A stretch of 64,000 bases of DNA from Candidatus Curtissbacteria bacterium (GCA_024654445.1 JANLHP010000017.1:33009-97008); one strand, 5' to 3'. Shown: positions 28,034 to 61,620, counted from the stretch's first letter. Notes: generated by a model not told the origin, from the letters alone. Program-made: numbers and translations.

Positions 28034-28129
28034 TTTAAGGAGACAACCTACGGTTTTCTCCTTAATATTCCTCTTTCCCTAAGAGGACAATTTTGAACTA
28101 GCAAAAGCTAGATTCAAAATTAATTTTAG
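28034..28129. repeat. Intergenic structured repeat family R1, copy 1 (between convergent gene ends)
   Basis: tttaaggagacaacctacggttttctccttaatattcctctttccctaagaggacaattttgaactagcaaaagctagattcaaaattaattttag; 6 copies in window. Confidence 0.85.
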
Positions 28130-28133
28130 GTGC

Positions 28134-29333
28134 TTAGTGAATAGCAGAACGAGGATTTGCGTTTTGGTTTATTAGAGAATCGAGAATTTGGAATCTTCGA
28201 TCTTTTTCCTTGTGGGTTATGTTGTCTTCGAATGCTTTTGTGGCTGCTGTATTGGGTCTAAGTGAATATTTGTTAACGTAAGCATAGGTAAAACCAACTT
28301 CCTTGGCGAGCTTTACTGTGTTTTCGAATTGTTCTTTGGTTTCACCCGGAAAACCGACAATTATGTCTGTTGAAATTTGAGCGTCTTTGACTTTGTTTTT
28401 TATTTTTTGGGTCAGCTTAATGTACTGATCTCTTGTGTACCATCTGTTCATTCGTTTTAGAACTGAGTCGTCTCCGGACTGAACTGCAAGATGGATGTTT
28501 CTGTCTACTTTGGGATTCTTCGCGATAGTTTCTATAAGCTCATCCGAAAAATCCCAGGGATTAGAAGAAATAAACTTCACTTTTTCGATTCCGCGAGTTT
28601 TGCAAACTTCTTCCAATAGATAAGGAAAAAGGGTAGGTATTCTGTATCGTCCCAAATGTTTTACCATCACTGGTTTTACCTTTTTACCATTTGGAAGCAA
28701 ATAACCTTTTTGAGCGTTTTTGACTAAATCTGTTCCATAGGAGTTAACGTTTTGACCTAAAAGCGTTACTTGGCGACAGCCGAGTTTTGCTAGTTCATCT
28801 ATTTCACCAAGAATGTCTGCAAATGGTCTAGAGACTTCTCTCCCCCTTGTGAAAGGGACTACGCAGAATGTGCAGAAATTGTTACAACCATTAGAAATTG
28901 GTACCCAGGAATGTTCGACCGTATGTCTCAGCGCCGGGTAATCAAAGCCGACTTCTTCGAGCGGTAAAAATTCGTCGACTTCGGGCATACGATTTCTTAA
29001 GGCTTTTAAATACTTTCCAGTTTCGTCTCTCGCTGCCATTCCAACCATACACCCAGTAATGACGATTTTGGGTTTTTCTTTTCTATTTGCTGTTATATTT
29101 TTGACCAAGCCCGTTACTCTATCTTCTGCGCTTTGACGGATCATGCAGGTATTAATGACAACAGCGCTTGCGGTTTTCATTGATTTTGCAACCTTGTACC
29201 CTCGCGCTACGTAGTAGCTGGAAATCCTTTCGCTGTCAGCTATATTTTGCTGGCAACCAAACGTCTTAATATAAAAAGTAGAATCTTTCATCGCTTGAAA
29301 TTTTAGCACAGAATTAGATGATTTTGGGAGCAA
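28134..29333 (-). CDS. miaB: MiaB-family radical-SAM methylthiotransferase (tRNA 2-methylthio-N6-isopentenyladenosine synthase-like)
   Basis: MTTase N-domain FGCQQN, radical SAM Cys triad NGCNNFCTFC, TRAM-like C-terminus; true start probably M15 (MKDSTFYIKTFGCQ). Confidence 0.7.
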   Translation of the reverse strand: MLPKSSNSVLKFQAMKDSTFYIKTFGCQQNIADSERISSYYVARGYKVAKSMKTASAVVINTCMIRQSAEDRVTGLVKNITANRKEKPKIVITGCMVGMAARDETGKYLKALRNRMPEVDEFLPLEEVGFDYPALRHTVEHSWVPISNGCNNFCTFCVVPFTRGREVSRPFADILGEIDELAKLGCRQVTLLGQNVNSYGTDLVKNAQKGYLLPNGKKVKPVMVKHLGRYRIPTLFPYLLEEVCKTRGIEKVKFISSNPWDFSDELIETIAKNPKVDRNIHLAVQSGDDSVLKRMNRWYTRDQYIKLTQKIKNKVKDAQISTDIIVGFPGETKEQFENTVKLAKEVGFTYAYVNKYSLRPNTAATKAFEDNITHKEKDRRFQILDSLINQNANPRSAIH

Positions 29334-29682
29334 AAATAATTATGCCGATTGCGGCTGCGGCGACTGAAAGAATAAGGACCGCGCCTGCAGCACAGTGCTT
29401 TGCAAGCCTAGCTTTCGGATGCTCGTCTGGATGTAAAATGTCGCATGTTTCTTCGATTGCCGTATTCATTGTTTCTGCAGAAATGACTGCTGATATTGTT
29501 AAAATTAATACTAGCCATTCTAAGGGCGAGACTGTGTAGAAAAGACCCAAAACAACAACGGCAATTGCAGTTATTGTATGAATTTTGAAATGTGTTCCTT
29601 TTTTGAAGCTGTACGCTATTCCTTCAATTGCAAAAGAGAAGCTTTTCACTTGATGGACTAAAAATGAGTCTCGTTTTACCAT
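29314..29682 (-). CDS. dgkA: Diacylglycerol kinase / undecaprenol kinase (DgkA family)
   Basis: 3 TM helices, AIEETCD... motif region, 122 aa. Confidence 0.65.
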   Translation of the reverse strand: MVKRDSFLVHQVKSFSFAIEGIAYSFKKGTHFKIHTITAIAVVVLGLFYTVSPLEWLVLILTISAVISAETMNTAIEETCDILHPDEHPKARLAKHCAAGAVLILSVAAAAIGIIIFAPKII

Positions 29683-29785
29683 TATTTAATTATACATAGC
29701 GGCACATATCTGGCAAGCTATAGGATTTGGCTACGTTGACTTTTAGCCTCGAAAAGAGTATATTTCGGCCAGAAAGAGTAATAAA

Positions 29786-30097
29786 ATGACAGAAAAAGAT
29801 ACAGAGAGACTAGGAACTGTTGTAAGCAACAGTAATGACGACGCCGTCAAAAAAGCGAAGTATGATTCAATACGCGATGAGATTCAGGGTATTTTCCCAA
29901 AACCTCCAATAGACGCAGAACTTTCTGGCGTAGAAATACTCGACCCAAGGACAATAAACGGATCTCACGTTCCATCTACGGTGAAATCTAGTTCATTGAC
30001 TACCCCTGAACAGGTTGGCGATCATGAGTCTAAAAAGGGACTTATAATTTTTGCCGATAGAGCTGCTAGATTAAAAGCTAAAAGGAAAGCTGCTTGA
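29786..30097 (+). CDS. Hypothetical protein (103 aa)
   Basis: ATG-started ORF in otherwise empty gap; no motif. Confidence 0.3.
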   Translation: MTEKDTERLGTVVSNSNDDAVKKAKYDSIRDEIQGIFPKPPIDAELSGVEILDPRTINGSHVPSTVKSSSLTTPEQVGDHESKKGLIIFADRAARLKAKRKAA

Positions 30098-30108
30098 TTC
30101 TTCTTAAA

Positions 30109-30381
30109 TTATTTAATTAGTCTTCTGAGAGTTTTTCCGGCTGTGAAGCCGGGGAGTTTGTGCCCGCCAATTTGTATGGCGTCGCCGGTTTGGGGATTGC
30201 GACCTTTCCTGGTTTTTCGATTTCTAACCTTGAACGTTCCGAAACCCGTAATTACAACTTTATCACCTTTTGCAAGTGATTCACGGATCGTTCCAAAAAC
30301 AGCATTGACTGCGTCAAAACCCGACTTTTTGGTTAAACCTACTTTTTTGGAAACTCTTTCGGCAAGTTCGTTTTTCGTCAT
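30109..30381 (-). CDS. hup: HU family DNA-binding protein
   Basis: MTKNELAERVS..., GFGTFKVRNRKTRKGRNPQTGDAIQI arm motif. Confidence 0.9.
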   Translation of the reverse strand: MTKNELAERVSKKVGLTKKSGFDAVNAVFGTIRESLAKGDKVVITGFGTFKVRNRKTRKGRNPQTGDAIQIGGHKLPGFTAGKTLRRLIK

Positions 30382-30469
30382 AATTTTCCCCTATTTTTTA
30401 GGAAACCTTGCGGTTTCCTTTGACAGTCTTACAAACTAGAATTATATTCACTCAAGCTAAGTTAGTCAA

Positions 30470-31969
30470 TCACTTTGCAATATCGACTGCCCTTGTTTCA
30501 CGAATAACTGTAACGGTTATCTGTCCGGGGTATGCAAGCTCTTTTTCTAATCTTTCTTTAATTTCGTGGGCGAGAATCACGATCTTATCATCGTCTAAAA
30601 TCTGCGGATTAACTATAACTCTTACTTCTCTCCCTGCTTGAATTGCGTAGGCTTTGTCGACACCTTCGTAGTTCATGGCGATATTTTCAATTTCTGTAAG
30701 TCTCTTAATGTAGTCCTCTACTGCTTCATGGCGCGCACCTGGTCTTGCGCCAGAAACCGCGTCTGCGATATGAACGATAATAGATTCGTTATGGGAGAAA
30801 GGCTCGTCTTCATGATGCTGAGCGATACAATCGATAACCTGTTGAGGGAAATTCCATTTTTTGGCCAGCTCCACACCTAGCTGCACATGAGTCCCTTCTT
30901 TGTCTACCTGAGTTTTTCCGATATCATGGAAGAGGCCTCCAGTTGCTGCAATTGTACTGTTTGCCCCTAATTCTTCTGCGAGTTTTTTAGCAATTTTACC
31001 GGTTTCCAAAGACGCGATTAATTGGTTTTGGCCGTATGAATATCGGAATTTGAGTCGACCTAAGGTGTCGAGAGCTTCCTGGGGTAGATTGTAAAGGCCA
31101 AGCTCGTGAGCGGCTTTCCTTCCAGCTTCTGACATGTCTTCTTCGACTTGTTGCCTTGCTTTTTCTACGAGCTGCTCGATCCGAGTTGGTTGGATCCTTG
31201 CATCTTTTACTAACCATTCGAGCGCCATTCTGGCAATTTCCCTTCTTACAGAATCAAAGGAAGAAAGCCTTACTTCACCTTCTATATCACTGTCGAGTTC
31301 AACGTCTACTCCAGTCGCAAGTTCGAAGGCGCGAATGTTTCTGCCTTCTTTCCCGATAATTCGGCCTTTGATATCGTCTGATTCAAGCTTTATTGTGCTA
31401 ACCGTGTATTCCGCGACCCAATCAGTGGCGCCTGCCATCATGGAATTTATTAAAATTTCTTTTGCTTTCTCATCTGCCGATGCTTTAATTTCCTCTTCGG
31501 CTTCTTTAATTCTTTTTGCGATTTCGCTTTTTAATTTTTCTTCTGTATTTTCTAGAATTATTTTCTTGGCTTCTTCGGATGTAAGGCTGGTTACTTTTTG
31601 GAGTTTTTCAGAAAGATCGTCTCTTAGTTTTTCGAGTTCTTTTTCCTGCTTGAGAATCGCTTGGGTTTTACTTTGGAAACTTCCTTCTTGGCGAGACAAT
31701 TCCTCGATCTTTGATTCTAGGGATTCCTCTTTTTGGGCAATCCTCTTTTCAATTTCGAGGGATTCTTGCCTAAGTTTTCTGGCTTCGTCTTCCGCGGCTT
31801 TTTTAATGCGGAAGGCTTCGTCTCTTGCGTCCTGAACTATGTTTCTTGCGTGTGATGATTGATCGCTATTGCCTCCTGAGTTTCCCACAGAAACGACGAC
31901 CTTTTTGGGTTCATTCACTTGGTCTCGTTGATCGTTATATTGAGTTTTTTTACCAAAAACTTTAGCCAT
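30470..31969 (-). CDS. rny: Ribonuclease Y
   Basis: Coiled-coil N-half, KH domain IIGKEGRNIRAFELATGVDV, HD domain GLFHDIGK...HH; 499 aa; the 233-aa Ser-rich antisense ORF 31134..31835 is an artefact. Confidence 0.85.
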   Translation of the reverse strand: MAKVFGKKTQYNDQRDQVNEPKKVVVSVGNSGGNSDQSSHARNIVQDARDEAFRIKKAAEDEARKLRQESLEIEKRIAQKEESLESKIEELSRQEGSFQSKTQAILKQEKELEKLRDDLSEKLQKVTSLTSEEAKKIILENTEEKLKSEIAKRIKEAEEEIKASADEKAKEILINSMMAGATDWVAEYTVSTIKLESDDIKGRIIGKEGRNIRAFELATGVDVELDSDIEGEVRLSSFDSVRREIARMALEWLVKDARIQPTRIEQLVEKARQQVEEDMSEAGRKAAHELGLYNLPQEALDTLGRLKFRYSYGQNQLIASLETGKIAKKLAEELGANSTIAATGGLFHDIGKTQVDKEGTHVQLGVELAKKWNFPQQVIDCIAQHHEDEPFSHNESIIVHIADAVSGARPGARHEAVEDYIKRLTEIENIAMNYEGVDKAYAIQAGREVRVIVNPQILDDDKIVILAHEIKERLEKELAYPGQITVTVIRETRAVDIAK

Positions 31970-32107
31970 TTAATTGTGAGAAATGCAAAATATTTCCTGC
32001 TTCTGAGGAACTGGTGTAAGTTTAAATACGAATGGAGAAAGATCCCGTTTGGTAATTCATTTTTCACACTTACAAAAATGCTATTTCTCTTTCTTTAATT
32101 TAAAATT

Positions 32108-32764
32108 CTAGCCCTTTTTCGGTAAATTTGCAAATATTTCGCGGATTATTTCTACGCTGAATCCTCGCGCCCCTAAATACATATACACCTTTTTTTTAAG
32201 ATCTAAATTGGAAAGATTTTGCCACCTTTTGATCTTTTTTTGAATAGCTTTTTGGGCAAGTTCCAACTCGTTAACTGCACCTTCTAACATCTTCGCAATC
32301 AAATCTTCTTCGACGCCTTTGGCTTTTAATTCGGATCTTAATGCGATTTTCCCTTTTGGCTTAGAGCGCATTCTTGATTCAATGAACCACTTTGCAAACT
32401 GTTGGTCGTTGATGTATTTGTATTTTTTTAACTTTTTTATGACAATTGCTATCTGTAGACTTTCTTTTGCTTCATGGAATTTAATTTTTTGTCTTAGTGA
32501 AATCTTTTTTATCAAATAATCTGCAACTTCTTTTTCGCTTCTCGGCCTGTACGATAAAAAGTGGGCGGCAAGGTCTGTAAGCCTCCCTATTTCTTCTTTG
32601 GCCAAGATATTTGTTACGTCTTCTTCGGTAATGTTTTTACCGATTTTTAAGTTGTGTTCGAAAACGGCAATTTCTTTAACTCCAAAGGCGAATTTTCCAT
32701 CGAGGAAAATATTGAATCTCTGGGGGTTTTTCTTTTGAGGTTCTATAGAAGTTATCTGTGGCAC
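32108..32764 (-). CDS. recX: RecA regulator RecX
   Basis: Immediately downstream of recA; helical-repeat protein of RecX size and composition. Confidence 0.6.
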   Translation of the reverse strand: MPQITSIEPQKKNPQRFNIFLDGKFAFGVKEIAVFEHNLKIGKNITEEDVTNILAKEEIGRLTDLAAHFLSYRPRSEKEVADYLIKKISLRQKIKFHEAKESLQIAIVIKKLKKYKYINDQQFAKWFIESRMRSKPKGKIALRSELKAKGVEEDLIAKMLEGAVNELELAQKAIQKKIKRWQNLSNLDLKKKVYMYLGARGFSVEIIREIFANLPKKG

Positions 32765-32772
32765 AAACAGAT

Positions 32773-33855
32773 TTACACTTGAGGTGATTCTCCTGTTAAT
32801 GACTCTAAAATTTCGTCGTCTTCGCTTTCGTGGTTTATGACTTTTGTTGGCTTAATCCCTGACCCTTTTTTGACTTTTGCCCAAATTTCTTTTTCTAGGC
32901 TTTGGGCTTCTTTTTTATGTTCAGCAAGATATGCCTTGGCGCTTTCTCTACCTTGGCCAATCAGTTTTGTGCCGAGGCGGAAAAATGCGCCTGACTTGGA
33001 GACTAGCCCAAGTTCTACGGCAACATCCAAGAGTCCCGCCTCTCTTGATATGCCTTCTTCGGCCATTATGTCGAATTCTGCAATTCTAAAGGGAGGAGCA
33101 ACTTTATTTTTGACAACTTTTACTCGATGCCGGCTGCCGATTACTTTGTCGCCTTCCTTTATATTATCAATCCTGCGAATATCAAGCCTGACAGAAGAAT
33201 AAAACTTGAGAGCTCGACCACCCGGAGTCACTTCAGGATTCCCAAACATGATGCCGATTTTTTCTCGGAGTTGGTTAGTGAAAATGGCGATGGTTTTGGA
33301 TTTTGAGATTGCACCAGTTAATTTTCTGAGGGCCTGGGACATTAATCTGGCCTGAATTCCCATTACGGAATCGCCCATCTCGCCTTCTATTTCCGCCCTA
33401 GGGACAAGAGCTGCAACCGAATCGATAACTATGACGTCGACTGCCCCAGAGCGAATTAATGTTTCTGTTATTTCCAATGCTTGTTCACCGGTGTCTGGTT
33501 GAGAGATGAGTAGGTCTTCAAGATTAACGCCAATCTTTTGGGCCCATACAGGATCGAGGGCGTGTTCGGCGTCGATTAACGCAACGTTGCCGCCATTTTT
33601 CTGCGCTTGGGCAATTATAGAAAGGGCTACTGAAGTTTTTCCGGAAGCTTCCGGGCCATAAATTTCAATAATTCTACCCCGGGGCAAACCGCCAACGCCG
33701 AGGGCGAGATCTACTGGAATTATCCCTGTGGAGATAACCTCTATGTCCCATTTGCCTACAGATTCCCCCATCTTCATGATGGAGCCTTTCCCATAGGCTT
33801 TTTCTATTTGGGAGATGGCAGTTGCGATTGCTTGTTTTTTAGCGTCGGAACTCAT
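32773..33855 (-). CDS. recA: Recombinase RecA
   Basis: Walker [14 protein letters not shown]1/L2 loops, 360 aa. Confidence 0.97.
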
Positions 33856-35276: not shown

Positions 35277-35284
35277 TTTGAGCT

Positions 35285-37552: not shown

Positions 37553-37573
37553 CTAATTCACCTCCTTTTTTTA

Positions 37574-37680
37574 ATTTAAGGGACAACCTACGGCCTGCCT
37601 GTCGGCAGACAGGTTTTCCCTTAATATTCCTTTTCCTTTAATGGACAAAATTAAACTGGCTAAGCCAGATTTAATTTTAG
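37574..37680. repeat. R1 repeat, copy 2 (with extra internal hairpin ctgtcggcagacag)
   Basis: tttaagggacaacctacggcctgcctgtcggcagacaggttttcccttaatattccttttcctttaatggacaaaattaaactggctaagccagatttaattttag. Confidence 0.85.
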
Positions 37681-37706
37681 ATTTTATGATAGCTCTTTCC
37701 ATAATT

Positions 37707-39115: not shown

Positions 39116-39229
39116 TTATCCTTGTCTTTGCTTATGACGAGGGTTAACACAAATTACGTAAAGGACCCCTCGTCTTTTGACGATTTTACAATTTACACAT
39201 CTTTTTCTAACGCTTGCTTGAACTTTCAT
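39116..39229 (-). CDS. rpmJ: 50S ribosomal protein L36 (37 aa; absent from the ORF track)
   Basis: Manual translation [37 protein letters not shown]; Zn-ribbon C..C..C..H; TAA stop one nt before rpsM ATG. Confidence 0.9.
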
Positions 39230-39234
39230 ACACT

Positions 39235-39328
39235 TTAAAGGGACACCTACGGTTTCCCTTTAATATTTCCTTTCTCTTTTAGTGGACGATTTTGTACTGG
39301 CAAAGCCAGATCCAAAATTAATTTTATA
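39235..39328. repeat. R1 repeat, copy 3 (between infA and rpmJ)
   Basis: tttaaagggacacctacggtttccctttaatatttcctttctcttttagtggacgattttgtactggcaaagccagatccaaaattaatttta. Confidence 0.8.
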
Positions 39329-39341
39329 TTTTAAACTCATA

Positions 39342-43507: not shown

Positions 43508-44050
43508 TTATTGCGCAGTTTTGACTGCTTTGCCTGCCTTTCTTCTTACAATCTCACCGGCGTATTTGATACCTTTCCCTTTGTAAGGCTCAGGCGGTCT
43601 TACTCTTCTGATTTTAGCGGCTACTTCACCGACCAGAACTTTATCGGCGCCGCTTATTATTATTTTGTTTTCTTTGGCTTCGATATTTATACCTTTGATT
43701 TGTTCAAAGGTCACGGGATGCGAATATCCAATATTCAATACCAGACTCTCGCCTTGTTTTGCTGCGCGGTAACCAACACCAACGAGTTCCAAAACTTTTT
43801 CGTGCCCATCTGTTACACCCTTTACCATATTTGCAATAACGCTTCTGGTTAACCCGTGAAGAGATTTAGCAAATTTTGTTTCTGAAAGGCGATTTACGTC
43901 TACTTTCCCGTCATTCACATCGACTTTTATTTCTGGACGAATTTGGAATGACAATTCACCCTTTGGGCCCACTACGTTAATTTGAGAATCCATCACGGAA
44001 ACCGTAACGCCTTGTGGGATCGGTACTGGTTGTTTTCCTATCTTTGACAT
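43508..44050 (-). CDS. rplF: 50S ribosomal protein L6
   Basis: MSKIGKQPVPIPQGVTV. Confidence 0.95.
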   Translation of the reverse strand: MSKIGKQPVPIPQGVTVSVMDSQINVVGPKGELSFQIRPEIKVDVNDGKVDVNRLSETKFAKSLHGLTRSVIANMVKGVTDGHEKVLELVGVGYRAAKQGESLVLNIGYSHPVTFEQIKGINIEAKENKIIISGADKVLVGEVAAKIRRVRPPEPYKGKGIKYAGEIVRRKAGKAVKTAQ

Positions 44051-44110
44051 AATATGCTCCTTTCAGTCGCAAGAATCTCAAAGTTCAAAGTGCAAAGTTC
44101 AAAATTGAGG
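44051..44110. promoter_or_regulatory. Conserved leader motif R3 upstream of rplF (minus-strand sense TTTGAACTTTGCACTTTGAACTTTGAG...TGCGACTGAAAGGAGCA-ATG)
   Basis: Same 45-60 nt motif with SD GAAAGGAG recurs at 44547..44607 and 46880..46945. Confidence 0.6.
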
Positions 44111-44170
44111 AAGCCAAAAGATTTTTGGCTTTTTATTTTGATATTTGATATTTGATATTTGATATTTTTG
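44111..44170. repeat. Hairpin (gccaaaagatttttggc) followed by microsatellite (TTTGATA)x4-5
   Basis: gccaaaagatttttggctttttattttgatatttgatatttgatatttgatattttt. Confidence 0.8.
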
Positions 44171-44171: not shown

Positions 44172-44546
44172 TTACCATACAATACATATCACTTCTCCCC
44201 CTAATTTTTTAGACCTTGCATCGCTTCCCGTCATAACACCTTGAGGTGTAGAAACAATTGTTATGCCTCTTCCGCCTTTTATAGACTTAATATCTTTGCT
44301 TTTTGTGTAAACTCTAAGACCTAATTTAGAGACTTTTTTGACTTCTTTTAACTTTGGTTTATTGTTTTCGTATAAGAGACCTACTTCGAGTTTAGTGTCT
44401 GTTTTTTGAACGCTAGCGATAAATTTACTTTTTTCTAAAACTTTAGCAATCTCAAATTTGAATTTTGAATGCGGCATAGAAACGGTTTGTTTCCGGGCCA
44501 TATAACCATTTTTTATCGCAACTAACATGTCTGCTATTGGATCCAC
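44172..44546 (-). CDS. rpsH: 30S ribosomal protein S8
   Basis: MDPIADMLVAIKNG. Confidence 0.95.
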   Translation of the reverse strand: MDPIADMLVAIKNGYMARKQTVSMPHSKFKFEIAKVLEKSKFIASVQKTDTKLEVGLLYENNKPKLKEVKKVSKLGLRVYTKSKDIKSIKGGRGITIVSTPQGVMTGSDARSKKLGGEVICIVW

Positions 44547-44607
44547 TGTTTTGCTCCTTTCTGTCGCAAAAATTTTAAATTTAAAATTTCAAATTTAAAG
44601 TTAATTA
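44547..44607. promoter_or_regulatory. R3 leader motif upstream of rpsH
   Basis: minus-sense ...TTTAAATTTGAAATTTTAAATTTAAAATTTTTGCGACAGAAAGGAGCAAAACA-ATG. Confidence 0.55.
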
Positions 44608-44793
44608 TTACCATGATGATTTTTTCACTCCTGGCACTTCTCCTTTATGAACAAGTTCCCTGAAACAAAGCCTGCACATACCAAATTTTCTTAGATAAGC
44701 CCTTGGCCTGCCGCATAGACGGCAACGGTTTCTGTGCCTTACTTCAAATTTCTGCTTTTTATCGTTTTTAATAACTTTAGATTTTCTTGCCAT
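44608..44793 (-). CDS. rpsN: 30S ribosomal protein S14 type Z (Zn-binding)
   Basis: [23 protein letters not shown]; 61 aa. Confidence 0.95.
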
Positions 44794-46471: not shown

Positions 46472-46879
46472 TTATCCTTTTGTTACTATTTTTGTCTTAA
46501 GTGGTAACTTATGAGCTGCAAGTCTCATTGCCTCCATGGCAACTTTTTCCTCTACTGCTCCCATTTCAAAAATGATTACTCCAGGTCTTACAACTGCAAC
46601 GTATTGGTCAACGTCACCTTTACCAGAACCCATACGGGTTTCTGCTGGCTTTTTGGTAACAGGTTTGTCTGGAAAAATCCTAATCCAAATACGCCCACCT
46701 CTTTTGGTATAGTGAGTCATTGCGCGCCTTGCCGCTTCAATTTGCCTGGCAGTCACCCAACCCGCCGCCTGACTTTTGAGTCCATATGAACCAAAGGCGA
46801 GGACGCTGCCTCTTATCGAGACGCCACCCATTTTCCCTCTAAATTGTTTCCTAAATTTTGCTCTTTTTGGCGCTAACAT
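46472..46879 (-). CDS. rplP: 50S ribosomal protein L16
   Basis: [17 protein letters not shown]. Confidence 0.95.
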
Positions 46880-46945
46880 GGTTTGCTCCTTTCAGTCGCA
46901 GAAAGTTTAAAGTTCAAAGTGCAAAGTTCAAAGTTAAGGAGGTTA
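46880..46945. promoter_or_regulatory. R3 leader motif upstream of rplP; followed (46990..47030) by tttgatttttgacttttgatttttgatg short tandem repeats
   Basis: minus-sense TTTGAACTTTGCACTTTGAACTTTAAACTTTCTGCGACTGAAAGGAGCAAACC-ATG. Confidence 0.6.
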
Positions 46946-48054: not shown

Positions 48055-48075
48055 TTGTAACCTCCGGTTACTTAC

Positions 48076-48118
48076 TAATTTGAACTAATTTTGCTAATTT
48101 ATACGAATATTTGTTCAT
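48076..48118. promoter_or_regulatory. Conserved leader motif R4 upstream of rplV (TAATTTGAACTAATTTTGCTAATTTATACGAATATTTGTTCAT; SD ACCGGAGGTT)
   Basis: Near-identical 43-nt element at 56953..56996 upstream of rpsG. Confidence 0.6.
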
Positions 48119-48153: not shown

Positions 48154-48438
48154 TCATTTTTTTGCTGATGATTTTTCTGTCATTTTGCCGTGTCCTCTAA
48201 AAGTTCTGGTTGGCGCGAATTCACCGAGCCTGTGACCTACCATTGGTTCGGAAACGAAAACATTAATGAATGTTCTGCCGTTATGAACGGAGAACGTATG
48301 ATTTACAAATTCGGGCGCAATCTGGCTAGCCCTAGCCCAAGTTTTAATAGGTGCTTTTTGTGCAGCCTGTTTTTGGGCCATAACTTTCTTCATTAATTTT
48401 TCGTCAACGTATGGACCTTTCTTACTCGATCTACTCAT
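48154..48438 (-). CDS. rpsS: 30S ribosomal protein S19
   Basis: [15 protein letters not shown]; TGA stop. Confidence 0.95.
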
Positions 48439-48443
48439 TTTGA

Positions 48444-48539
48444 CTTTAAGGGCAAACCTAACGGTTTTCCCTTAATATTCCCTTTCCCTTTATTGGACAA
48501 ATTTGGACTGGCAAACCCAGATCCAAATTTTAATTTTAG
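48444..48539. repeat. R1 repeat, copy 4 (between rplB and rpsS)
   Basis: ctttaagggcaaacctaacggttttcccttaatattccctttccctttattggacaaatttggactggcaaacccagatccaaattttaattttag. Confidence 0.85.
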
Positions 48540-48556
48540 ATTTTTAAAATTAATTG

Positions 48557-51841: not shown

Positions 51842-51896
51842 CTTTTAATGTGCTCCTTTTTTCCCTTCGACTACGCTCAGGGAATATTTACTTTTT

Positions 51897-51953
51897 GTCA
51901 TCCTGAACTCGATTCAGGATCCAGATTCTATCGCTTCGCTCCAGAATGACAGT
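51897..51953. repeat. R2 palindromic repeat, copy D (tuf-rpsJ spacer)
   Basis: gtcatcctgaactcgattcaggatccagattctatcgcttcgctccagaatgacag. Confidence 0.8.
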
Positions 51954-55717: not shown

Positions 55718-55993
55718 TTACTTGGAAAGCTTTTCTTTGGTGGAGTTAGCTTGACCGATTCCAATTGGAGGACGTTCTATCTTTCTTATTTCTGCTTTAA
55801 TTTCGGCAACCATGGCCCGAAGCACAGAAACTTCTTCGTCCGCGAGTTCCCAGGCGGCGTTTTCGTTCCAAGCAGCACCAGAATCTTGATAAGCTTCTCC
55901 ATAACGAGTCAGAGCATCTTTGAGTTTGACCTCCTCGAGCTCTTTTAGCTTTGTCCTAAGTTGTTTTAACTTCTGTCCTTTTGATAATGCCAT
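55718..55993 (-). CDS. Hypothetical small coiled-coil protein inserted between rpsG and fusA (start taken at MALSKGQKLK; track ORF extends into R1 repeat)
   Basis: 91 aa, Lys/Glu heptad-like N-half, acidic Trp-containing middle (AAWNENAAWELADEE); no recognisable family. Confidence 0.45.
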   Translation of the reverse strand: MALSKGQKLKQLRTKLKELEEVKLKDALTRYGEAYQDSGAAWNENAAWELADEEVSVLRAMVAEIKAEIRKIERPPIGIGQANSTKEKLSK

Positions 55994-56001
55994 GTTTCTG
56001 A

Positions 56002-56134
56002 TTTTAAGGGACAACCTAATAAGCAAAGCTTGCGGTCCTCGTCCTTCGGACTGCGGGCCTAACGGTTTTCCCTTAATATTCCCTTTCCCTTAATGGAGAA
56101 ATTTAAACTAGCAAAGCTAGATTTAAATTTCGAT
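56002..56134. repeat. R1 repeat, copy 5 (with extra internal UUCG-tetraloop hairpin gtccttcggac)
   Basis: ttttaagggacaacctaataagcaaagcttgcggtcctcgtccttcggactgcgggcctaacggttttcccttaatattccctttcccttaatggagaaatttaaactagcaaagctagatttaaattt. Confidence 0.85.
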
Positions 56135-56145
56135 TGTATTGCACT

Positions 56146-56199
56146 GTCATTCTGAATGAAATGAAGAATCTAGATCCTTCGCTGCGCTCAGGATGACAT
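56146..56199. repeat. R2 palindromic repeat, copy E
   Basis: gtcattctgaatgaaatgaagaatctagatccttcgctgcgctcaggatgacat. Confidence 0.75.
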
Positions 56200-56437: not shown

Positions 56438-56932
56438 TTACCACCGGAAATGTGAGAACGCCTTATTCGCCTCTGCCATGCGATGCATTTCTTCCCTTTT
56501 GGCGACAGCTTTACCTGCACCTTGAGCTGCTTCTTGAAGTTCGGCCACGATTTTCGCGGCAATCGGTGGTAATTTGCCTATTTTTTCGACGTCTTTTGGA
56601 GACCTGCTTCTAGCTGCATCTACCAACCAAGTTAAGGCAAGAGATTGCCTTCTTGGTCCACGTACTTCAATAGGCACCATGTAAGAGGCACCGCCAACTC
56701 TTCTTGGTTTAACTTCCATTTTAGGGGTGATATTTTCGAGGGCTCTTTCGAATAAAACGATTGGGTCTTCGCCTTTTCTCTCTATTTCTGCAAAAGCTCC
56801 GTAAACCGCTTTTTCGGCGATGGTTTTTTTACCGTCTTTCATTACCTTGTTGATGAATTTGGTCACAAGAGGGCTATTGTAGATTGGGTCTGCGCCCACT
56901 TGCCTTTTTATGATTTTTCCGGTTCTAGGCAT
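56438..56932 (-). CDS. rpsG: 30S ribosomal protein S7
   Basis: MPRTGKIIKRQ...ANKAFSHFRW; TAA stop then hairpin CCGGACCUUUCGGUCCG. Confidence 0.97.
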   Translation of the reverse strand: MPRTGKIIKRQVGADPIYNSPLVTKFINKVMKDGKKTIAEKAVYGAFAEIERKGEDPIVLFERALENITPKMEVKPRRVGGASYMVPIEVRGPRRQSLALTWLVDAARSRSPKDVEKIGKLPPIAAKIVAELQEAAQGAGKAVAKREEMHRMAEANKAFSHFRW

Positions 56933-56952
56933 AGAAACCTCCGGTTTCTTGC

Positions 56953-56996
56953 AAATTTGAACTAATTTTGACTAATTTAATCGAATATTCGTTCAT
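56953..56996. promoter_or_regulatory. R4 leader motif upstream of rpsG
   Basis: aatttgaactaattttgactaatttaatcgaatattcgttcat; SD ccggaggtt. Confidence 0.6.
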
Positions 56997-57025
56997 GGTA
57001 GGTTCATTCGTTTGCATTTGTAGCG

Positions 57026-57505
57026 TTAGCCTTCGGCTGGCGGAGCTGCTGCTGCAGATGCTCCGGCTGTCGTGGCTGCTTGAGCGCCGCTTGTCGCGCC
57101 AGATTTCTTAGTTCCATAAAGGGATCTTCCTTGTTTTCTGTTGTTAACGCCAGTTGTGTCGTATTTACCGCGAATAATGTGATATTTAACGCCGGGTAAA
57201 TCTTTGACACGTCCGCCTCTGACTAAAACTACAGAGTGCTCTGCAAGTTCGTGTCCGATTCCCGGAATGTAAGCTGTAATTTCTTGTTTGTTGGAAAGCC
57301 TTACACGTGCGACTTTTCGAAGAGCAGAATTTGGTTTTTTAGGAGTCATTGTTTTTACCACGACACAAACTCCCCTCTTTTGTCCGGAAGGATAGCTTGT
57401 GTATCTATTAGTTCTAGAGTTGAAGGCACGTCTCAAAGCGGTTGCCCTAATGCGCTTTATCTTAGACGTCCTGCCTTTTCTAATTAATTGATTTACTGTT
57501 GGCAT
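57026..57505 (-). CDS. rpsL: 30S ribosomal protein S12 with ~35-aa Ala/Gly/Thr-rich C-terminal tail
   Basis: [12 protein letters not shown]...[10 protein letters not shown]; 159 aa vs ~124 typical. Confidence 0.95.
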
Positions 57506-57579
57506 AATTTATCTCAATTTCAAAATTTAAAGTTTAAAAGTCAAAATTACAACTCAAAACTTAAAAGTTGCGTTGGGAG

Positions 57580-57608
57580 ATTATAACAATCTGGGCGTAG
57601 TATGTCGA
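57580..57608 (-). promoter_or_regulatory. Sigma70-like promoter for rpsL-rpsG: -35 TCGACA, 17-nt spacer, -10 TATAAT
   Basis: minus-sense ctCGACAtactacgcccagattgtTATAATctcccaacgc; ~67-nt AT-rich leader with TTTTGA/TTTAAA repeats. Confidence 0.55.
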
Positions 57609-57825
57609 GATCTGGTAGTAAAATAAAAATTTGATCCGAACAATTTTAAGGCTTGAGGGGCTGGCAATATTTCTTTTATCCTTTCAGCTTCAGCCATATT
57701 TGTGATTAAATCTAGCTTTCTGTTGGACGATTTTGGCGCGGTCGGGGTTGGTTGGAATCAGGTGACCGATGATATCAGCAGGTCGCTTCGCGCTCCTCTG
57801 ATATAATTTTTGTTTCTAATGGAGT

Positions 57826-60800
57826 TTAAGACTCGGTGCTTATTTTTGCCCTATCAGGGCTCGTAGGAATTAACCTACCAATTATGACGTTTTCCTTTAG
57901 ACCAAGAAGCGGATCGTACTTGCCTTCGCTAGCTGCGTCTGTAAGGATTCTAGTTGTTTCCTGGAAGGATGCAGCAGACAAGAAGCTTTCTGTGTAAAGG
58001 GCAGCTCTCGTGATACCAAGGATAACAACTTGGGCTGTCGCTGGCTCTCCGCCTTCTGCCAAGACTTTTCCGTTTTCGCCTTCGAATCGGTTCTTGTCGA
58101 CTAACTCGCCCGGTAGAAGAGTCGTGTCGCCGGATGTTTCGATTCTGACTTTTTCGCTCATCTTTCTGACGATTGCCTCAAAATGCTTGTCGTTAATTGC
58201 AACACCCTGGCTTTCGTACACTTGTTGAGCACCCGCAATTATGTACTTCTGAGCTGCGCGCAAGCCGGAAATTGCCAGAACCTCTTTGATGTCGAGATAT
58301 CCAGATGAAAGAGGAGTACCGGCCGCAATTAAGTCTCCGTCTGCGACTAAAAGGTCGACTGCGGATGGAATAAAGTATTCTTTTTCTTGGGCTGGTTTGA
58401 TTCTGGTGCTTTTAATTGTGACGGCGTAACCTTCTTCGTTCTCTTCGACTTTAACTTTGCCGGCAATTTCTGCAAGCTGAGCGACAAATTTTGGAACTCT
58501 TGCTTCAAAGAGTTCTTCGACCCTTGGAAGACCCTGAGTAATATCGAGACCTACGATACCACCAGTGTGGAACGTTCTCATAGTAAGCTGCGTTCCAGGT
58601 TCTCCGATACTCTGGGCGGCAATTACGCCAACTGGTGTTCCAATTTTAACTAACTCTCTGGTTACCAAATCTCTTCCGTAACACAATGCGCAGAGGCCAT
58701 GCTTTGCCTGGCAAGTAAGAACGGACCTTACAAGTACTTCTTCTATGCCGGCCTTTTCGATTTCTGCGACTTTTTCTTCGGTGATTTCTTCGCCTGCTTT
58801 TACAATCGCATTTTTGCCCTTTGATGAAAGTACATCTTTGGCAGCGTATCTTCCGTGAATCCTTGAAGCAAGGGGCGCTTGTCTTTTGTCACGTTTGGAG
58901 AATTCTATTCCTTCTGTCGTACCGCAGTCTTCAAGTCTAATTATCGCATCGTGAGCAACGTCAACAAGCCTTCGAGTTAGATATCCAGATTCCGCTGTCT
59001 TAATAGCCCGATCGGCTAGTCCCTTCCTTGCGCCTCGGGCACTTGTGAAGTACTCGAATACGGAAAGACCTTCACGGAAGTTGGATTTAACTGGCAGTGG
59101 AACGATTTGACCTGATGGGTCTGTAACGAGTCCTCGAATTGCTGAAAGCTGTTTAATCTGCTCTGCGGTTGCCCTTGAACCGCCGGAATCCGAGATAATC
59201 TTGATGGCGTTTGTCCCGGGAAGATTTCTCCATGTCAGGTCTGCAAGTTCGTTGGTTGTTGTAAGCCATACTTCCTGGGATAGGCGTCTTTCTTCTTCTT
59301 TTGTGATAAGACCCATCTTGAAGTTCTTTTCGATCGCTTCGACTTCTTTTTCGGCTTTGGCAATAATATTCGGTTTGTCTCCTACAATCTGACAGTCAAA
59401 AACAGAAACCGAAAGACCTGAGAACGTTGCGCCTTCGAACCCTAAGCTCTTAAGTCTGTCGATAATTCCAAGAACTTCTTCTTCGGGGAGTGTGTCGATA
59501 CTCTTGTTGATGATGCCTTTGATTGCAGCAGCTGTTATGGGTTCGTTTATGAACCGGAGTGACTCCGGAAGTTGAATGTTAAAAATAACTCTGCCCGCCG
59601 TTGTGTCAATGATTTCTTTTCCGAGTTTGATTTTAATTCTTTGTCTTATGCCAACCCTTCCGGTCGCGACCCCAATTACAACTTCTTCTTCGTCGCGGAA
59701 GATGCCTTCGTAAGGTTCTTTCCCCTCGTCGATAGAAGTTAAGTAGTAAACACCTAGCGCCATTTCTTTATTTGGCAAAGTAATTGGAGAGCCGTCTGCG
59801 GGTCTAAGCAAGTTTTTAGAAGCAACCATCAGGCTTATCGCTTCTGCTTGAGACGCTTCAGAAAGAGGAACATGAACCGCCATTTGGTCTCCGTCGAAGT
59901 CGGCGTTAAACCCGGCACATATACAAGGGTGAATTCTGATCGCGTCGCCTTCTATTAGAATCGGGTAGAAAGCTTGGATACCAAGGCGGTGGAGAGTCGG
60001 GGCTCTATTTAAAAGAACTGGATGATTTTTAGTAATTTCTTCGAGGATATCCCAAATTTCTCCGCTTCTTCTCTCTAAAAAGTGTTTCGCGCTTTTGACA
60101 TTCGGGGCATGACCTCTTGATATGATTTCGCGCAGTACAAATGGCTTAAACATTTCGAGCGCCATTTCTTTAGGAATACCTGTTTGGTGCAGGTCGAGTT
60201 CCGGTCCGACGACGATTACGGACCTACCGGAGTAATCAACACGTTTTCCAAGAAGGTTTTGTCTGAATCTTCCCTGTTTTCCTCGAAGCATGTCAGAAAG
60301 TGATCTTAGTTCTTGTGATGCCCGAGTTGTTTTAACTTTTTGAGAATCGATGAGAGCATCGACTGCTTCTTGGAGCATTCTTTTTTCGTTTCTCAGAATG
60401 ATCTCCGGAGCCCCAAGCTCTATTAACTTTTTGAGTCGGTTATTTCTGTTGATGACTCTTCTGTAAAGATCGTTAAGGTCCGAAGTTGCGAACCTTCCAC
60501 CTGAAAGCTGAACCATAGGGCGAAGATCTGGCGGCAGAACAGGGAGAGTTTTTATAATCATCCAGGTTGGGGAAATTTGCGCCTTTCGCATTCCTTCAAC
60601 AACCCTCAATCTTTTTGCGGCTTTGATGTATTTCTGGCTGCTGGCGGTCGTTAATTCTTTTCTAAGATTAGCCGCAAGTTGTGCAAGGTCTATTTTCTCA
60701 AGAACAGCCAGGACGGATTCAGCACCCATTCCAACTTTTAAGAACTCGTGCGCTTCGTAGTCTGCAATTTTTTGATATTCGTCTTCAGAAATTAAATCGA

Positions 60801-61518
60801 GAGGTTTGACAGAGTTGACCATACTGGTAATGCTCTTGTAGATTTCCTCGAGTCTGGAAACTTCCTTGGCGTTTTCGTCCCGGAGCATTGCCTGTCTTTG
60901 GCGCGTGATCAGCTGCATTTCTTCGATTTTAAGTTCTGATTGTTCTTTTGCTGTCGATTTACCTTTGACTTCCGCGACCTCTTTTTTGCCTTCTTTTTCC
61001 TGCTCTTCTAAGTTTTTCTTTAAAAGTACTTGTTGTTCTTTTCTCTTTGCTTCCAGATCCTGTTCTAAGCGTTTTATGATTTCTGCTCTTTTATCTTCGT
61101 CGAGGTCGATGACGATGTATGACGCGAAATAAATTACAGCGTCTAAGCTCCTTGGGGAAACATCAAGAAGAAGCCCGAGCTTCGACGGGCTGCCTTTGAA
61201 AAACCAGTTGTGAACAACCGGAGCAGCAAGTGTAATGTGGCCCATTCTTTCACGACGGACTCTAGATTGGGTTACTTCAACGCCACATTTGTCACAAATT
61301 ATTCCGCGGTACCTGATCCTTTTGTATTTACCGCAGTAACACTCCCAGTCTTTTGTGGGGCCGAAAATGCGTTCGTCGAAAAGTCCGTCTTTTTCCGGCT
61401 TCAGCGTTCTGTAGTTAATGGTTTCAGGTTTTGTGACCTCACCAAAAGACCACGTCTTGATGTCGTCTGCTGACGCGAGTGTTAATTTTAAGGCTTCAAA
61501 ATCGATTAGTTCGTTCAT
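57826..61518 (-). CDS. rpoC: DNA-directed RNA polymerase subunit beta'
   Basis: Zn-binding CxxC..CxxC N-terminus, NADFDGD catalytic motif; 1230 aa. Confidence 0.99.
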   Translation of the reverse strand: MNELIDFEALKLTLASADDIKTWSFGEVTKPETINYRTLKPEKDGLFDERIFGPTKDWECYCGKYKRIRYRGIICDKCGVEVTQSRVRRERMGHITLAAPVVHNWFFKGSPSKLGLLLDVSPRSLDAVIYFASYIVIDLDEDKRAEIIKRLEQDLEAKRKEQQVLLKKNLEEQEKEGKKEVAEVKGKSTAKEQSELKIEEMQLITRQRQAMLRDENAKEVSRLEEIYKSITSMVNSVKPLDLISEDEYQKIADYEAHEFLKVGMGAESVLAVLEKIDLAQLAANLRKELTTASSQKYIKAAKRLRVVEGMRKAQISPTWMIIKTLPVLPPDLRPMVQLSGGRFATSDLNDLYRRVINRNNRLKKLIELGAPEIILRNEKRMLQEAVDALIDSQKVKTTRASQELRSLSDMLRGKQGRFRQNLLGKRVDYSGRSVIVVGPELDLHQTGIPKEMALEMFKPFVLREIISRGHAPNVKSAKHFLERRSGEIWDILEEITKNHPVLLNRAPTLHRLGIQAFYPILIEGDAIRIHPCICAGFNADFDGDQMAVHVPLSEASQAEAISLMVASKNLLRPADGSPITLPNKEMALGVYYLTSIDEGKEPYEGIFRDEEEVVIGVATGRVGIRQRIKIKLGKEIIDTTAGRVIFNIQLPESLRFINEPITAAAIKGIINKSIDTLPEEEVLGIIDRLKSLGFEGATFSGLSVSVFDCQIVGDKPNIIAKAEKEVEAIEKNFKMGLITKEEERRLSQEVWLTTTNELADLTWRNLPGTNAIKIISDSGGSRATAEQIKQLSAIRGLVTDPSGQIVPLPVKSNFREGLSVFEYFTSARGARKGLADRAIKTAESGYLTRRLVDVAHDAIIRLEDCGTTEGIEFSKRDKRQAPLASRIHGRYAAKDVLSSKGKNAIVKAGEEITEEKVAEIEKAGIEEVLVRSVLTCQAKHGLCALCYGRDLVTRELVKIGTPVGVIAAQSIGEPGTQLTMRTFHTGGIVGLDITQGLPRVEELFEARVPKFVAQLAEIAGKVKVEENEEGYAVTIKSTRIKPAQEKEYFIPSAVDLLVADGDLIAAGTPLSSGYLDIKEVLAISGLRAAQKYIIAGAQQVYESQGVAINDKHFEAIVRKMSEKVRIETSGDTTLLPGELVDKNRFEGENGKVLAEGGEPATAQVVILGITRAALYTESFLSAASFQETTRILTDAASEGKYDPLLGLKENVIIGRLIPTSPDRAKISTES

Positions 61519-61524
61519 TTTTGA

Positions 61525-61620
61525 CTTTAAGGAGACAACCTACGATTTTCTCCTTAATATTCCTCTTTCCCTAAAAAGATAATTTTAAACTGGCAAATCT
61601 AGATTTAAAATTCATTTTAG
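61525..61620. repeat. R1 repeat, copy 6 (between rpoB and rpoC)
   Basis: tttaaggagacaacctacgattttctccttaatattcctctttccctaaaaagataattttaaactggcaaatctagatttaaaattcattttag. Confidence 0.85.

Follow-up and report, generated by a model that had tools for sequence, protein, structure and literature searches.

Repeats of the REP/BIME, BOX, ERIC, RUP and Correia types are short, structured, multi-copy and intergenic, are often co-transcribed within operons and are patchily distributed among relatives, and some of them affect mRNA stability or are substrates of RNase III. RNase III hairpins between the early genes of phage T7, and an RNase III site in the E. coli rplL-rpoB spacer, act as repeated signals that divide up a polycistronic transcript, and the hairpins left at the ends are protective. 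The ribosomal protein (r-protein) leaders in Rfam are structured RNAs immediately 5′ of r-protein start codons, conserved by covariation, each belonging to one operon and mimicking the rRNA site of its own regulator. RNase Y sites, such as those in the saePQRS spacer of S. aureus and in cggR/gapR-gapA of B. subtilis and S. aureus, lie in intercistronic spacers, with an A/U-rich single strand after a G and a hairpin a few nucleotides downstream. In the saePQRS spacer, RNase Y needs a double-stranded element and cuts a few nt upstream of it, which stabilises the fragment downstream and shifts cistron ratios (PMC5449607); the enzyme is positioned by a G before the cut and by sequence elements in the downstream stem, with an efficiency that depends on duplex formation (PMC11321564). 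The known sites are individual loci with a weak consensus (PMC11780869). Here we describe R1, a two-hairpin RNA element of ~100 nt, six copies of which lie in the ribosomal gene cluster of a Candidatus Curtissbacteria bacterium (candidate phyla radiation, CPR, or Patescibacteria), within a stretch of 64,000 nt that we call the window (GCA_024654445.1, JANLHP010000017.1:33009-97008). Judged by ~120 distinct sequences and clear covariation, R1 is a genuine, well-supported family of structured RNAs, apparently not described before. It joins two known kinds, the cis-acting leader or spacer RNA and the transcribed intergenic repeat, in an unusual manner: one near-invariant motif stands before many translation genes and before stable RNAs.

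An earlier note on the window had listed six copies of a structured repeat, and a covariance model (built from 25 sequences and run over the whole window with filters off) finds exactly these six, all on the minus strand, with 50-114 bits and E-values of 1e-7 to 7e-20 (Table 1); the next matches in the window (E at least 0.025) are antisense echoes of the R1 hairpins. Five of the six copies also match a 23-24-nt core pattern, for which 100 shuffles gave an expectation of 0.00. The operon genes of the window are on the minus strand, and the transcribed form of R1 is the reverse complement of the strand that the note had given. Read 5′ to 3′ on the gene strand, R1 consists of an A/U-rich, TAAAAT-like edge; hairpin 2, a bulged 13-bp stem that is kept as structure only; a UCC linker and a purine tract (GGGAAAG[A/G]GGAAUAUU), which are single-stranded between the two hairpins; AAUAUU; hairpin 1, a stem of 13 pairs whose sequence (UUAAGGAGAAAACC / GGUUGUCUCCUUAA) is all but invariant, with a tip in which insertions are tolerated; and an A-rich spacer of ~9 nt (5-10 nt in the transcribed form of the window copies) before the AUG. 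The modular layout in the note was correct, and so was its second hairpin, although the CTGGC/GCCAG pairing drawn there falls short of the full stem. "Near-identical", however, overstates the likeness of the copies: their ungapped identity to one reference copy is only 61-72%, and strong conservation among them is limited to the purine tract and hairpin 1. The inserts reported in loop 1 of copies 2 and 5 are present, as a 20-nt self-complementary extension of the hairpin-1 tip in the former and a nested 43-nt mini-insert (AGGCCCGCAG..GAGGACCGCAAGCTTTGC) in the latter; the GTCC-TTC-GGAC within this mini-insert, which had been taken for a UUCG tetraloop, is transcribed as GUCC-GAA-GGAC and has a three-base loop. 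Pfam bears out the flanking genes as first assigned (S4 and RpoA for copy 2, IF-1 and L36 for copy 3, L2 and S19 for copy 4), and the copies, spaced 1.7-9.5 kb apart with genes between them, do not form a CRISPR array (the note had likewise held that this is no CRISPR repeat).

RNAalifold, applied to the R1 alignment, predicts the two hairpins. In two sets of sequences, aligned by fitting to the model and having some genomes in common, 95.2% (first set) and 95.6% (second set) of the cells pair, double changes occur in 24/26 and 19/26 pairs respectively, and none of 500 shuffles matches the observed pairing values in either set; if the 3′ partner is slid by 1-3 columns, pairing falls to 31-65%. 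Hairpin 2 has double changes at each of its 13 pairs. The lower stem of hairpin 1 hardly varies, and the middle pair of this hairpin toggles between G-C and A-U by sub-family; the compensatory change between GGAGA/TCTCC and GGGA/TCCC, from which selection on nucleic-acid structure had been argued in the note, is correct, and covariation extends well beyond it. In the transcribed sense G·U outnumbers A·C, the form that G·U on the opposite strand would take, by 43 to 14, and this excess indicates that the gene-sense strand is the strand that folds. All six window copies are predicted to fold as RNA with both hairpins formed and the start codon unpaired (z-scores -1.8 to -5.5; copy 1, -38.1 kcal/mol, z -5.5). 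On these comparisons of sequences, the RNA structure of R1 is under selection.

The element is not restricted to the window, ~160 homologues being found elsewhere. An exact-pattern scan of one genome per species gave 59 loci, with full-length R1 in 11 metagenome-assembled genomes (MAGs) of Candidatus Curtissbacteria, in four labelled Patescibacteria or Saccharimonadales and in six labelled "uncultured Gammaproteobacteria"; the last six are almost certainly Curtissbacteria-like, because their r-proteins are 88-92% identical to those of the window. A metagenome scan yielded 111 further stretches, and the covariance model gave 78 and 82 matches, 121 of them distinct, in at least 20 Curtissbacteria-type genomes and in metagenomes. 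The genome from which the window comes is not itself part of these collections. Copy number is low, at one to ~10 per genome in the genome stretches examined, and no rRNA gene lies near an R1 copy among 175 loci.

Our searches agree with the suggestion that R1 is undescribed. With Rfam release 15, the window at the gathering threshold matched only tRNA-Pro; when 25 loci and two copies were searched along with the window, by gathering threshold or by E-value, the matches were confined to tRNA, tmRNA (transfer-messenger RNA) and group I intron; E-value searches with copies 1 and 5 and with units from outside the CPR (described below) returned only noise far below threshold; and none of the Rfam r-protein leaders matches R1. 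BLAST of two copies against phage and plasmid collections gave no match, and literature searches found no description of R1. The five matches from a pattern scan of IMG/VR (L060-L064) were rejected: they are an ordinary phage ribosome-binding site (AAGGAGAAAACAATG) with no hairpin. In these related viral contigs a 19-nt string (GGAATATTAAGGAGAAAAC) lies directly before the ATG as such a site, and by this likeness the hairpin-1 5′ arm of R1 looks like a canonical strong ribosome-binding site.

Conservation along R1 is uneven. Between genomes, pairwise identity averages 87% in the purine tract with AAUAUU, 83% in the hairpin-1 stem, 69% in hairpin 2 and ~50% in the flanks; 25 copies of the GGAG sub-family, taken from many genomes, agree at every one of 44 consecutive core columns, and their hairpin 2 varies with compensation. 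The best R1 copies are 86-93% identical to window copies in genomes (the nearest relatives of the window genome) whose tuf and rpoC are 74-81% identical at the DNA level, and the keeping of the core as sequence, with hairpin 2 kept only as structure, fits purifying selection and not a recent selfish burst.

This bears on the description of R1 as MITE/REP-like in the earlier note. A selfish or neutral mobile repeat (of MITE, REP, BOX or Correia-like type) that spreads through transposition or recombination and is tolerated wherever expression is left intact would suit the occurrence of several copies per genome, the presence/absence polymorphism at orthologous junctions and the coexistence of sub-families in one genome; junctions of this type are also taken by a second, interchangeable family of cassettes, the activity of small insertions in such spacers is evident from the nested mini-insert, and in other phyla the core lies beside tRNA genes, flanked by duplicated tRNA 3′ ends. 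However, R1 has no terminal inverted repeats, since it ends in TAAAAT.. and ..CCTTAAAG and its only inverted repeats are the two internal hairpins; no duplicated bases are found at the flanks of the six copies; and orthologous junctions with and without R1 differ in that one sequence replaces another, rather than by a clean insertion. Nor is placement orientation-independent, as had been claimed: all six window copies and the homologues are co-directional with their flanking genes, strictly in the sense orientation. The first 28 kb of the window hold no copy, and five of the six lie within ~24 kb of ribosomal/RNA polymerase genes; copies are found mostly before genes of the translation apparatus and recur at orthologous junctions across species; hairpin 2 has diverged with compensation while the core has remained ~87% identical; and the phage and plasmid collections gave, as said, no match. 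The REP/BIME traits of a GTAG-headed palindrome of ~35 nt, hundreds of copies and clusters of alternating orientation are likewise not those of R1, with its six unclustered copies in 64 kb, all in one orientation (no RAYT search was made). Unlike repeats of this type, R1 also keeps a fixed short distance to the start codons of translation genes, and its core is under strong sequence selection. We consider a selfish or neutral repeat to be an improbable account of the family.

R1 is, as the note had proposed, carried inside r-protein and RNA polymerase transcripts. A canonical promoter (TTGACT-18-TATAAT) lies upstream of copy 5, a TGATATAAT promoter 9-25 nt before the rpsL copies in L020, L025 and L058, and TTGACG-17-TACAAT before the infA copy in L046, and operon-internal copies begin 0-40 nt after the upstream stop codon; it is from these upstream promoters and this operon-internal placement that we take R1 to be part of the transcripts. 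Copy 5 had been assigned to the 5′ untranslated region of the fusA transcript, and a leader it is, but it does not directly precede fusA, because a 91-aa reading frame (orf91) comes first. Terminator prediction flagged hairpin 2 of copies 2 and 5 on both strands, and not that of the other copies; the U stretch pairs with a stretch of A that lies upstream. Hairpin 1 lacks a U run.

The TAAAAT, TACAAT or TATAAT at the 5′ edge of R1 might itself be a -10 box, so that each copy would start a transcript led by R1. A -10-like hexamer (at least 5/6, with A2 and T6) is present at this edge in 48 of the 90 distinct copies, and ~7 copies have a good -35 at 16-18 nt, against 1-2 at control spacings (examples are TTGACT-17-TATAAT in L048, TTGACA-18-TACAAT in L032 and ATGACA-16-TAAAAT in window copy 4). 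However, -35 scores of at least 4/6 are not enriched (16 copies, against 17 and 14 at control spacings), a consensus promoter scan of the region stays at background level, and the copies that open operons have separate canonical promoters 9-35 nt further upstream. Transcripts begun ~7 nt past the hexamer would also lack the bottom pairs of hairpin 2, which nevertheless covary; from copy 1, transcription would run antisense into the convergent gene; and promoter DNA gives no reason for hairpin covariation or for the G·U bias. R1 may have promoter activity in some contexts, but this is probably not what the family is selected for, and we give little credence to an internal promoter with its leader as the general explanation. 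Two further promoter candidates were rejected: a promoter inside R1 (TTGTCC-15/17-TATTAA/AATATT, or TAAAGT as the -10), which has poor hexamers and a spacing broken by tip insertions, canonical promoters being present elsewhere, and a leaderless-mRNA promoter, for which the spacing to ATG (1-13 nt) is too variable.

Among the Curtissbacteria-type copies with enough downstream sequence (87 distinct copies, a start codon being counted if it opened an open reading frame of at least 35 codons), 69 have a start codon within 27 nt downstream. The gap from the last hairpin-1 pair to the start codon is 1-13 nt (mode 9) in 61 of the 87, and 60 of these 61 gaps contain no Shine-Dalgarno-like motif; eight copies have longer gaps (16-27 nt), mostly with a true Shine-Dalgarno, as in copy 2, where AGGAGGTG follows R1 and precedes the rpoA ATG. 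The genes that follow encode r-proteins of the small (S12, S7, S13, S19, S3, S8, S16) and large (L36, L16, L6, L22, L14, L3) subunits, EF-Tu, IF1, NusA, RpoA and RpoC, together with SecY, GroES, Lon and a few more. At orthologous junctions R1 is present in 2/4 cases for rpsS, 4/10 for rpmJ (the window copy counted), 2/4 for rpoC and 4/5 for rpsL, and junctions without it are short and have a canonical Shine-Dalgarno, which R1 replaces. The rpmJ gene also has R1 in L047, L038 and L019, the rpoA orthologue in L046 has the same arrangement as copy 2, and the rpoB/rpoC junction has R1 in L040 and L126 and lacks it in L020 and L058; the rplB/rpsS junctions without R1 (L031, L005) are short, that of L031 having a GAGGAGG Shine-Dalgarno.

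R1 is not confined to the neighbourhood of start codons. It stands ~8-10 nt before the mature 5′ end of tmRNA (at L051 7323-7689 and L059 818-1212, found by Rfam and missed by ARAGORN; the same tmRNA-like 5′ sequence follows R1 in L077) and 8-10 nt before tRNA-Met genes with an initiator-type CGCGGGG 5′ end (L042, L121). Other copies have no downstream start codon: copy 1, those before terminator hairpins (L057, L084, L142) and those before the NrdR-box promoter of nrdR-nrdJ (L048, L032, L105, L137). These are among the best-scoring copies, and the perfect cores of copy 1, L057, L084 and L048 favour a role that is independent of translation. In the nrdR loci (L048 1350-1640, and also L032, L105 and L137), R1, with its own promoter TTGACT-17-TATAAT, lies just upstream of a TTGACA promoter and an NrdR-box-like palindrome (CACAATATATTGTG), before nrdR and the class II ribonucleotide reductase gene. 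Like the r-protein leaders, R1 is a structured, covarying RNA immediately 5′ of r-protein start codons; unlike them, it is one motif before more than 20 genes, tRNA-Met and tmRNA.

The close spacing to start codons could suggest a translational operator or enhancer, in which the Shine-Dalgarno-like purine tract (complementary to the 16S 3′ tail) and the Shine-Dalgarno:anti-Shine-Dalgarno-like duplex of hairpin 1 would be bound, beside the start codon, by the 30S subunit or by one trans-acting protein, placing many translation genes under one control, as the counterpart in bacteria of a leader motif held in common. The hairpin 1 to AUG distance is in the range of Shine-Dalgarno-to-AUG spacing, with no Shine-Dalgarno in the gap; R1 stands in for Shine-Dalgarno-bearing junctions; GGAAAG(G/A)GG resembles native Shine-Dalgarno sequences of the window (GAAAGGAGC, AAAGGAGGTGA); the targets are r-proteins, EF-Tu, IF1, NusA, RpoA/C, SecY and GroES; and a near-invariant core across species and phyla suggests a conserved trans partner. 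Yet equally perfect cores precede the untranslated tRNA-Met and tmRNA and occur at gene ends without a start codon, the purine tract is effectively ~16-19 nt from the AUG even with hairpin 1 bridged, patchiness at orthologous genes is odd for the operator of a regulon, and A-rich starts with neither Shine-Dalgarno nor R1 are common here (tuf, fusA, rpsL). An operator remains in our view a possible but unlikely role for R1. The related idea of a hairpin-bridged Shine-Dalgarno (of the T4 gene 38 type) was rejected, its effective spacing being too long. The starts of rpsK, rplR and secY, like those of tuf, fusA and rpsL, have only A/U-rich sequence upstream, and Shine-Dalgarno-independent initiation seems to be common in this organism.

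A processing signal, one of the functions that the earlier note had offered, is what we keep as the best mechanistic guess. We tentatively propose that R1 is an operon punctuation module: the transcript would be cut on the 5′ side of hairpin 1, and the ends so made would be protected by the two hairpins. The cut would be made by an endoribonuclease, most plausibly RNase Y, which the sequence-specific hairpin-1 duplex would direct to the single-stranded GG/AAUAUU, a few nt 5′ of this hairpin. Hairpin 1 would then cap and protect the 5′ end of the downstream RNA, and keep the short, A-rich, Shine-Dalgarno-less start region unpaired, with hairpin 2 blocking 3′ exonucleases on the upstream RNA. 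Such cutting could uncouple the abundance of neighbouring cistrons and could free the precursors of initiator-type tRNA-Met and tmRNA from upstream RNA.

The anatomy of an RNase Y site is found in R1: hairpin 1 is immediately preceded by an invariant GG-AAUAUU, which the predicted folds leave unpaired and which is part of a transcribed operon spacer or leader. At the described RNase Y sites, both pairing and stem sequence of the hairpin matter and the downstream fragment is stabilised (PMC5449607, PMC11321564). The window contains an RNase Y gene with RNase_Y_N, KH and HD domains. (This gene stands in a row with those of RecX and RecA, just upstream of the ribosomal cluster.) Punctuation would bring together GG-AAUAUU with its conserved duplex, an upstream hairpin kept only as structure, the placement in spacers and leaders of long operons, and the fact that mRNA, tRNA, tmRNA or nothing may follow. 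The RNase III sites of T7 and rplL-rpoB resemble R1 as punctuating hairpins, one of them in a ribosomal/RNA polymerase operon, but they have no sequence relation to it; the R1 stems have 13 pairs and conserved sequence, and the candidate enzyme is RNase Y.

Several points weigh against operon punctuation by R1. The sequences establish where R1 lies and in which orientation, its transcriptional setting, the conservation of its structure and sequence, its replacement of Shine-Dalgarno junctions and the presence of an RNase Y gene; the cleavage is something that we infer, as are its enzyme and the protection of ends. Known RNase Y sites are single loci of weak consensus, whereas R1 forms a family of near-invariant repeats that abut start codons and have a conserved purine tract and a second hairpin; and the trinucleotide after the proposed cut is AAU, not of the NUN type favoured in the S. 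aureus study (PMC11321564). Processing does not require a tight spacing of 3-13 nt to the start codon, and it leaves unexplained why the purine tract mirrors the hairpin-1 5′ arm, as set out below. The -10-like 5′ edge leaves room for promoter activity, and patchy presence at orthologous junctions implies that R1 is dispensable at any one site.

A core of ~50 nt, without full R1, was found in MAGs of Omnitrophota (11), Actinomycetota (two), Planctomycetia (one) and Onthoplasma (one), so that the core is not confined to the CPR. These core-only matches almost always adjoin tRNA genes, in two recurring arrangements. In type A, the order is tRNA gene, terminator, inverted copy of the tRNA 3′ half, a Shine-Dalgarno:anti-Shine-Dalgarno hairpin (AAGGAGG/CCUCCUU), core, variable hairpin and a direct repeat of the final 19-27 nt of the tRNA, CCA included; such units of 200-330 nt follow tRNA genes in L004, L045, L028, L050 and L022 (Omnitrophota) and in L018 and L049 (Actinomycetota), their ends are able to pair (14/16 in L045), and a group I intron is close by in the Actinomycetota loci. 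In type B, ~7 nt separate the core from a closed structured unit of 60-110 nt (GGGCGCWAGCCC...), after which comes the reverse complement of a complete tRNA gene (L024, L035, L009, L011, L053, L106, L129, L096, L086); the unit is closed by a long-range stem and ends 2 nt from the 3′ end of the convergent tRNA gene (Glu, Arg, Met, Val, Lys or Cys). Neither type has an Rfam match, and the type B unit may be a small RNA of undescribed type or a mobile module.

The core also has an internal symmetry. Over 9-10 nt the purine tract has, in reverse order, the sequence of the hairpin-1 5′ arm, to which the 3′ arm is complementary by Watson-Crick pairing. In the GGAG sub-family the purine tract is GAGGAAU and the 5′ arm UAAGGAG; the corresponding pairs are GGGAAU and UAAGGG (GGG), GGGGAAU and UAAGGGG (GGGG), GAGGGAAU and UAAGGGAG (GGGAG), and GGAAAU and UAAAGG (UAAAGG). 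The three strands switch state together, both in copies from the CPR and in core-only copies from other phyla, with 11 distinct copies as exceptions to the rule; the three segments are linked by sub-family descent, and the evidence for the mirror relation consists of 3-4 coordinated changes, not of the raw association. Mirror repeats cannot base-pair; the sole structural reading of this relation is a fold-back triple helix in which the purine tract runs antiparallel to the stem's purine strand.

Fold-back triple helices are known from H-DNA mirror repeats and, as RNA triplexes, from the SAM-II and preQ1-II riboswitches and ENE elements. As in these, the strand beside the R1 hairpin co-varies with one stem strand in a base-triple pattern; natural RNA triplexes, however, are mostly of the U·A-U major-groove or A-minor type, whereas the third strand of R1 would be a purine strand antiparallel to a purine strand, a motif documented for DNA and not for RNA. 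Purine-motif triplexes are established and stable for DNA, and disfavoured for RNA. This could point to a structure at the level of DNA, in which the single-stranded coding strand (in a lagging-strand template or a transcription bubble) folds the purine tract and both arms into a purine·purine-pyrimidine triplex hairpin that affects replication, transcription or recombination. The 9-10-nt mirror and the joint changes of the three strands across sub-families would suit it, and tolerance of G·T wobbles suits single-stranded DNA as well as RNA; but the tight spacing to start codons and mature RNA 5′ ends has no rationale at the DNA level, the arms are short (9-10 nt), and the 11 exceptions break the mirror rule. 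We regard a DNA triplex as very improbable.

A bolder reading, which we offer as speculation and think rather improbable, is that the core is an ancient, hitherto unrecognised RNA motif of at least four phyla, in which a purine·purine-pyrimidine triple helix would form on the Shine-Dalgarno:anti-Shine-Dalgarno-like duplex, the purine tract doubling back antiparallel to its Shine-Dalgarno-like strand, and would be read by a universal component of translation or RNA maturation, co-ordinating r-proteins, factors, initiator tRNA and tmRNA. If true, the core would be a bacterial counterpart of a shared "ribosome-regulon" leader and the first natural purine-motif RNA triplex. Short of this, the covariation of three strands raises the possibility of an unusual triple helix.

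CPR bacteria have tiny genomes and few recognisable regulators. With R1 before more than 20 genes of the translation apparatus, tRNA-Met and tmRNA, a testable handle on post-transcriptional co-ordination in the CPR is to hand. For annotation, R1 accounts for many Shine-Dalgarno-less ribosomal genes of Curtissbacteria, and for spacers of ~100 nt in otherwise compact operons.

Table 1. R1 copies and other features of the window (positions counted from its first nucleotide; bits, covariance-model score; gap, distance from the end of hairpin 1 to the ATG)
Feature	Position	Strand	Bits	Hairpin 2	Linker and purine tract	Hairpin 1	Context
R1 copy 1 (GGAG class)	28027..28132	-	114.3	28089-28121	28066-28088	28035-28065	between convergent gene ends, 3′ region of MiaB-like radical-SAM gene; flanks PMT glycosyltransferase (+, ends 28030) and UPF0004/radical-SAM gene (-, stop 28134-28136)
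R1 copy 2 (GGGA class)	37568..37689	-	77.4	37647-37678	37625-37646	37576-37624	rpsD/rpoA junction; tip extension 37594-37613; rpoA ATG 37552
R1 copy 3 (UAAAGGG variant)	39227..39330	-	81.7	39288-39319	39264-39287	39235-39263	infA/rpmJ junction; 5-nt gap to rpmJ ATG (39229), Shine-Dalgarno-free
R1 copy 4 (GGGA class)	48438..48541	-	87.1	48499-48530	48476-48498	48446-48475	rplB/rpsS junction; 7-nt gap to rpsS ATG (48438), Shine-Dalgarno-free
R1 copy 5 (GGGA class)	55996..56141	-	75.1	56099-56130	56077-56098	56004-56076	leader of orf91-fusA transcript; 10-nt gap to orf91 ATG (55993); upstream rpsG, then promoter
R1 copy 6 (GGAG class)	61519..61623	-	109.4	61581-61612	61558-61580	61527-61557	rpoB/rpoC junction, beginning immediately past rpoB stop codon (61621-61623); 8-nt gap to rpoC ATG (61518), Shine-Dalgarno-free
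Canonical promoter	56349-56320						upstream of copy 5
Mini-insert	56018-56060						hairpin-1 tip of copy 5
orf91	55718-55993	-					between rpsG and fusA
RNase Y gene	30470-31969	-
RecX gene	32108-32764	-
RecA gene	32773-33855	-
tuf start	53373						no Shine-Dalgarno, no R1
fusA start	55626						no Shine-Dalgarno, no R1
rpsL start	57505						no Shine-Dalgarno, no R1
Second cassette	44047-44111	-					directly before rplF
Second cassette	44544-44608	-					directly before rpsH
Second cassette	46876-46940	-					directly before rplP
35-nt repeat	48059-48093						Shine-Dalgarno region of rplV
35-nt repeat	56936-56970						Shine-Dalgarno region of rpsG
Palindromic repeat	14642-14679
Palindromic repeat	17141-17178
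Palindromic repeat	51896-51929
Palindromic repeat	56150-56198						leader upstream of copy 5

Further readings of the R1 sequence were tried and set aside. A third hairpin 5′ of the purine tract (UCCUCU/AGAGGA) is predicted in copies of the GGAG class, but only UCC/GGA is kept and no covariation is visible. Conserved TAA triplets and compensatory changes speak against a small open reading frame; a G-quadruplex would need a third G tract that is paired in the conserved stem; and a boxA-like CUCCUUAA lies inside a stem and differs between sub-families. A likeness of AACCGUAGG..CUCCUUA to the 16S 3′ end (helix 45 and anti-Shine-Dalgarno) was judged coincidental, the loop being specific to Curtissbacteria and not kept in other phyla.

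The mini-insert of copy 5 (~43 nt, AGGCCCGCAG, a short hairpin and GAGGACCGCAAGCTTTGC) recurs in L027, L102, L115, L124, L168 and L152, where it immediately follows hairpin 2 in copies of R1; GG(C/A)CCGCA is directly repeated within it, and its ends may carry short TTA/TTAGG duplications. The product of orf91 has no Pfam match, and frames of 65-73% identity occupy the same place in L025, L058 and L001. The second cassette family, read in the minus-strand sense, consists of an A/T-rich periodic stretch (TTGAACTTTGCACTTTGAAC...), then GCGACTGAAAGGAGC and the start codon, and has a strong Shine-Dalgarno at junctions of the R1 type; it is also found before rpsH and rpsM in L030 and L017. A 35-nt repeat with 91% identity is shared by the Shine-Dalgarno regions (AACCGGAGGTT) of rplV and rpsG, and short palindromic repeats (GTCATTCTGGAG..GAATC / GTCATCCTGAGCGCAGCGAAGGATC) occur at four intergenic places in the window.

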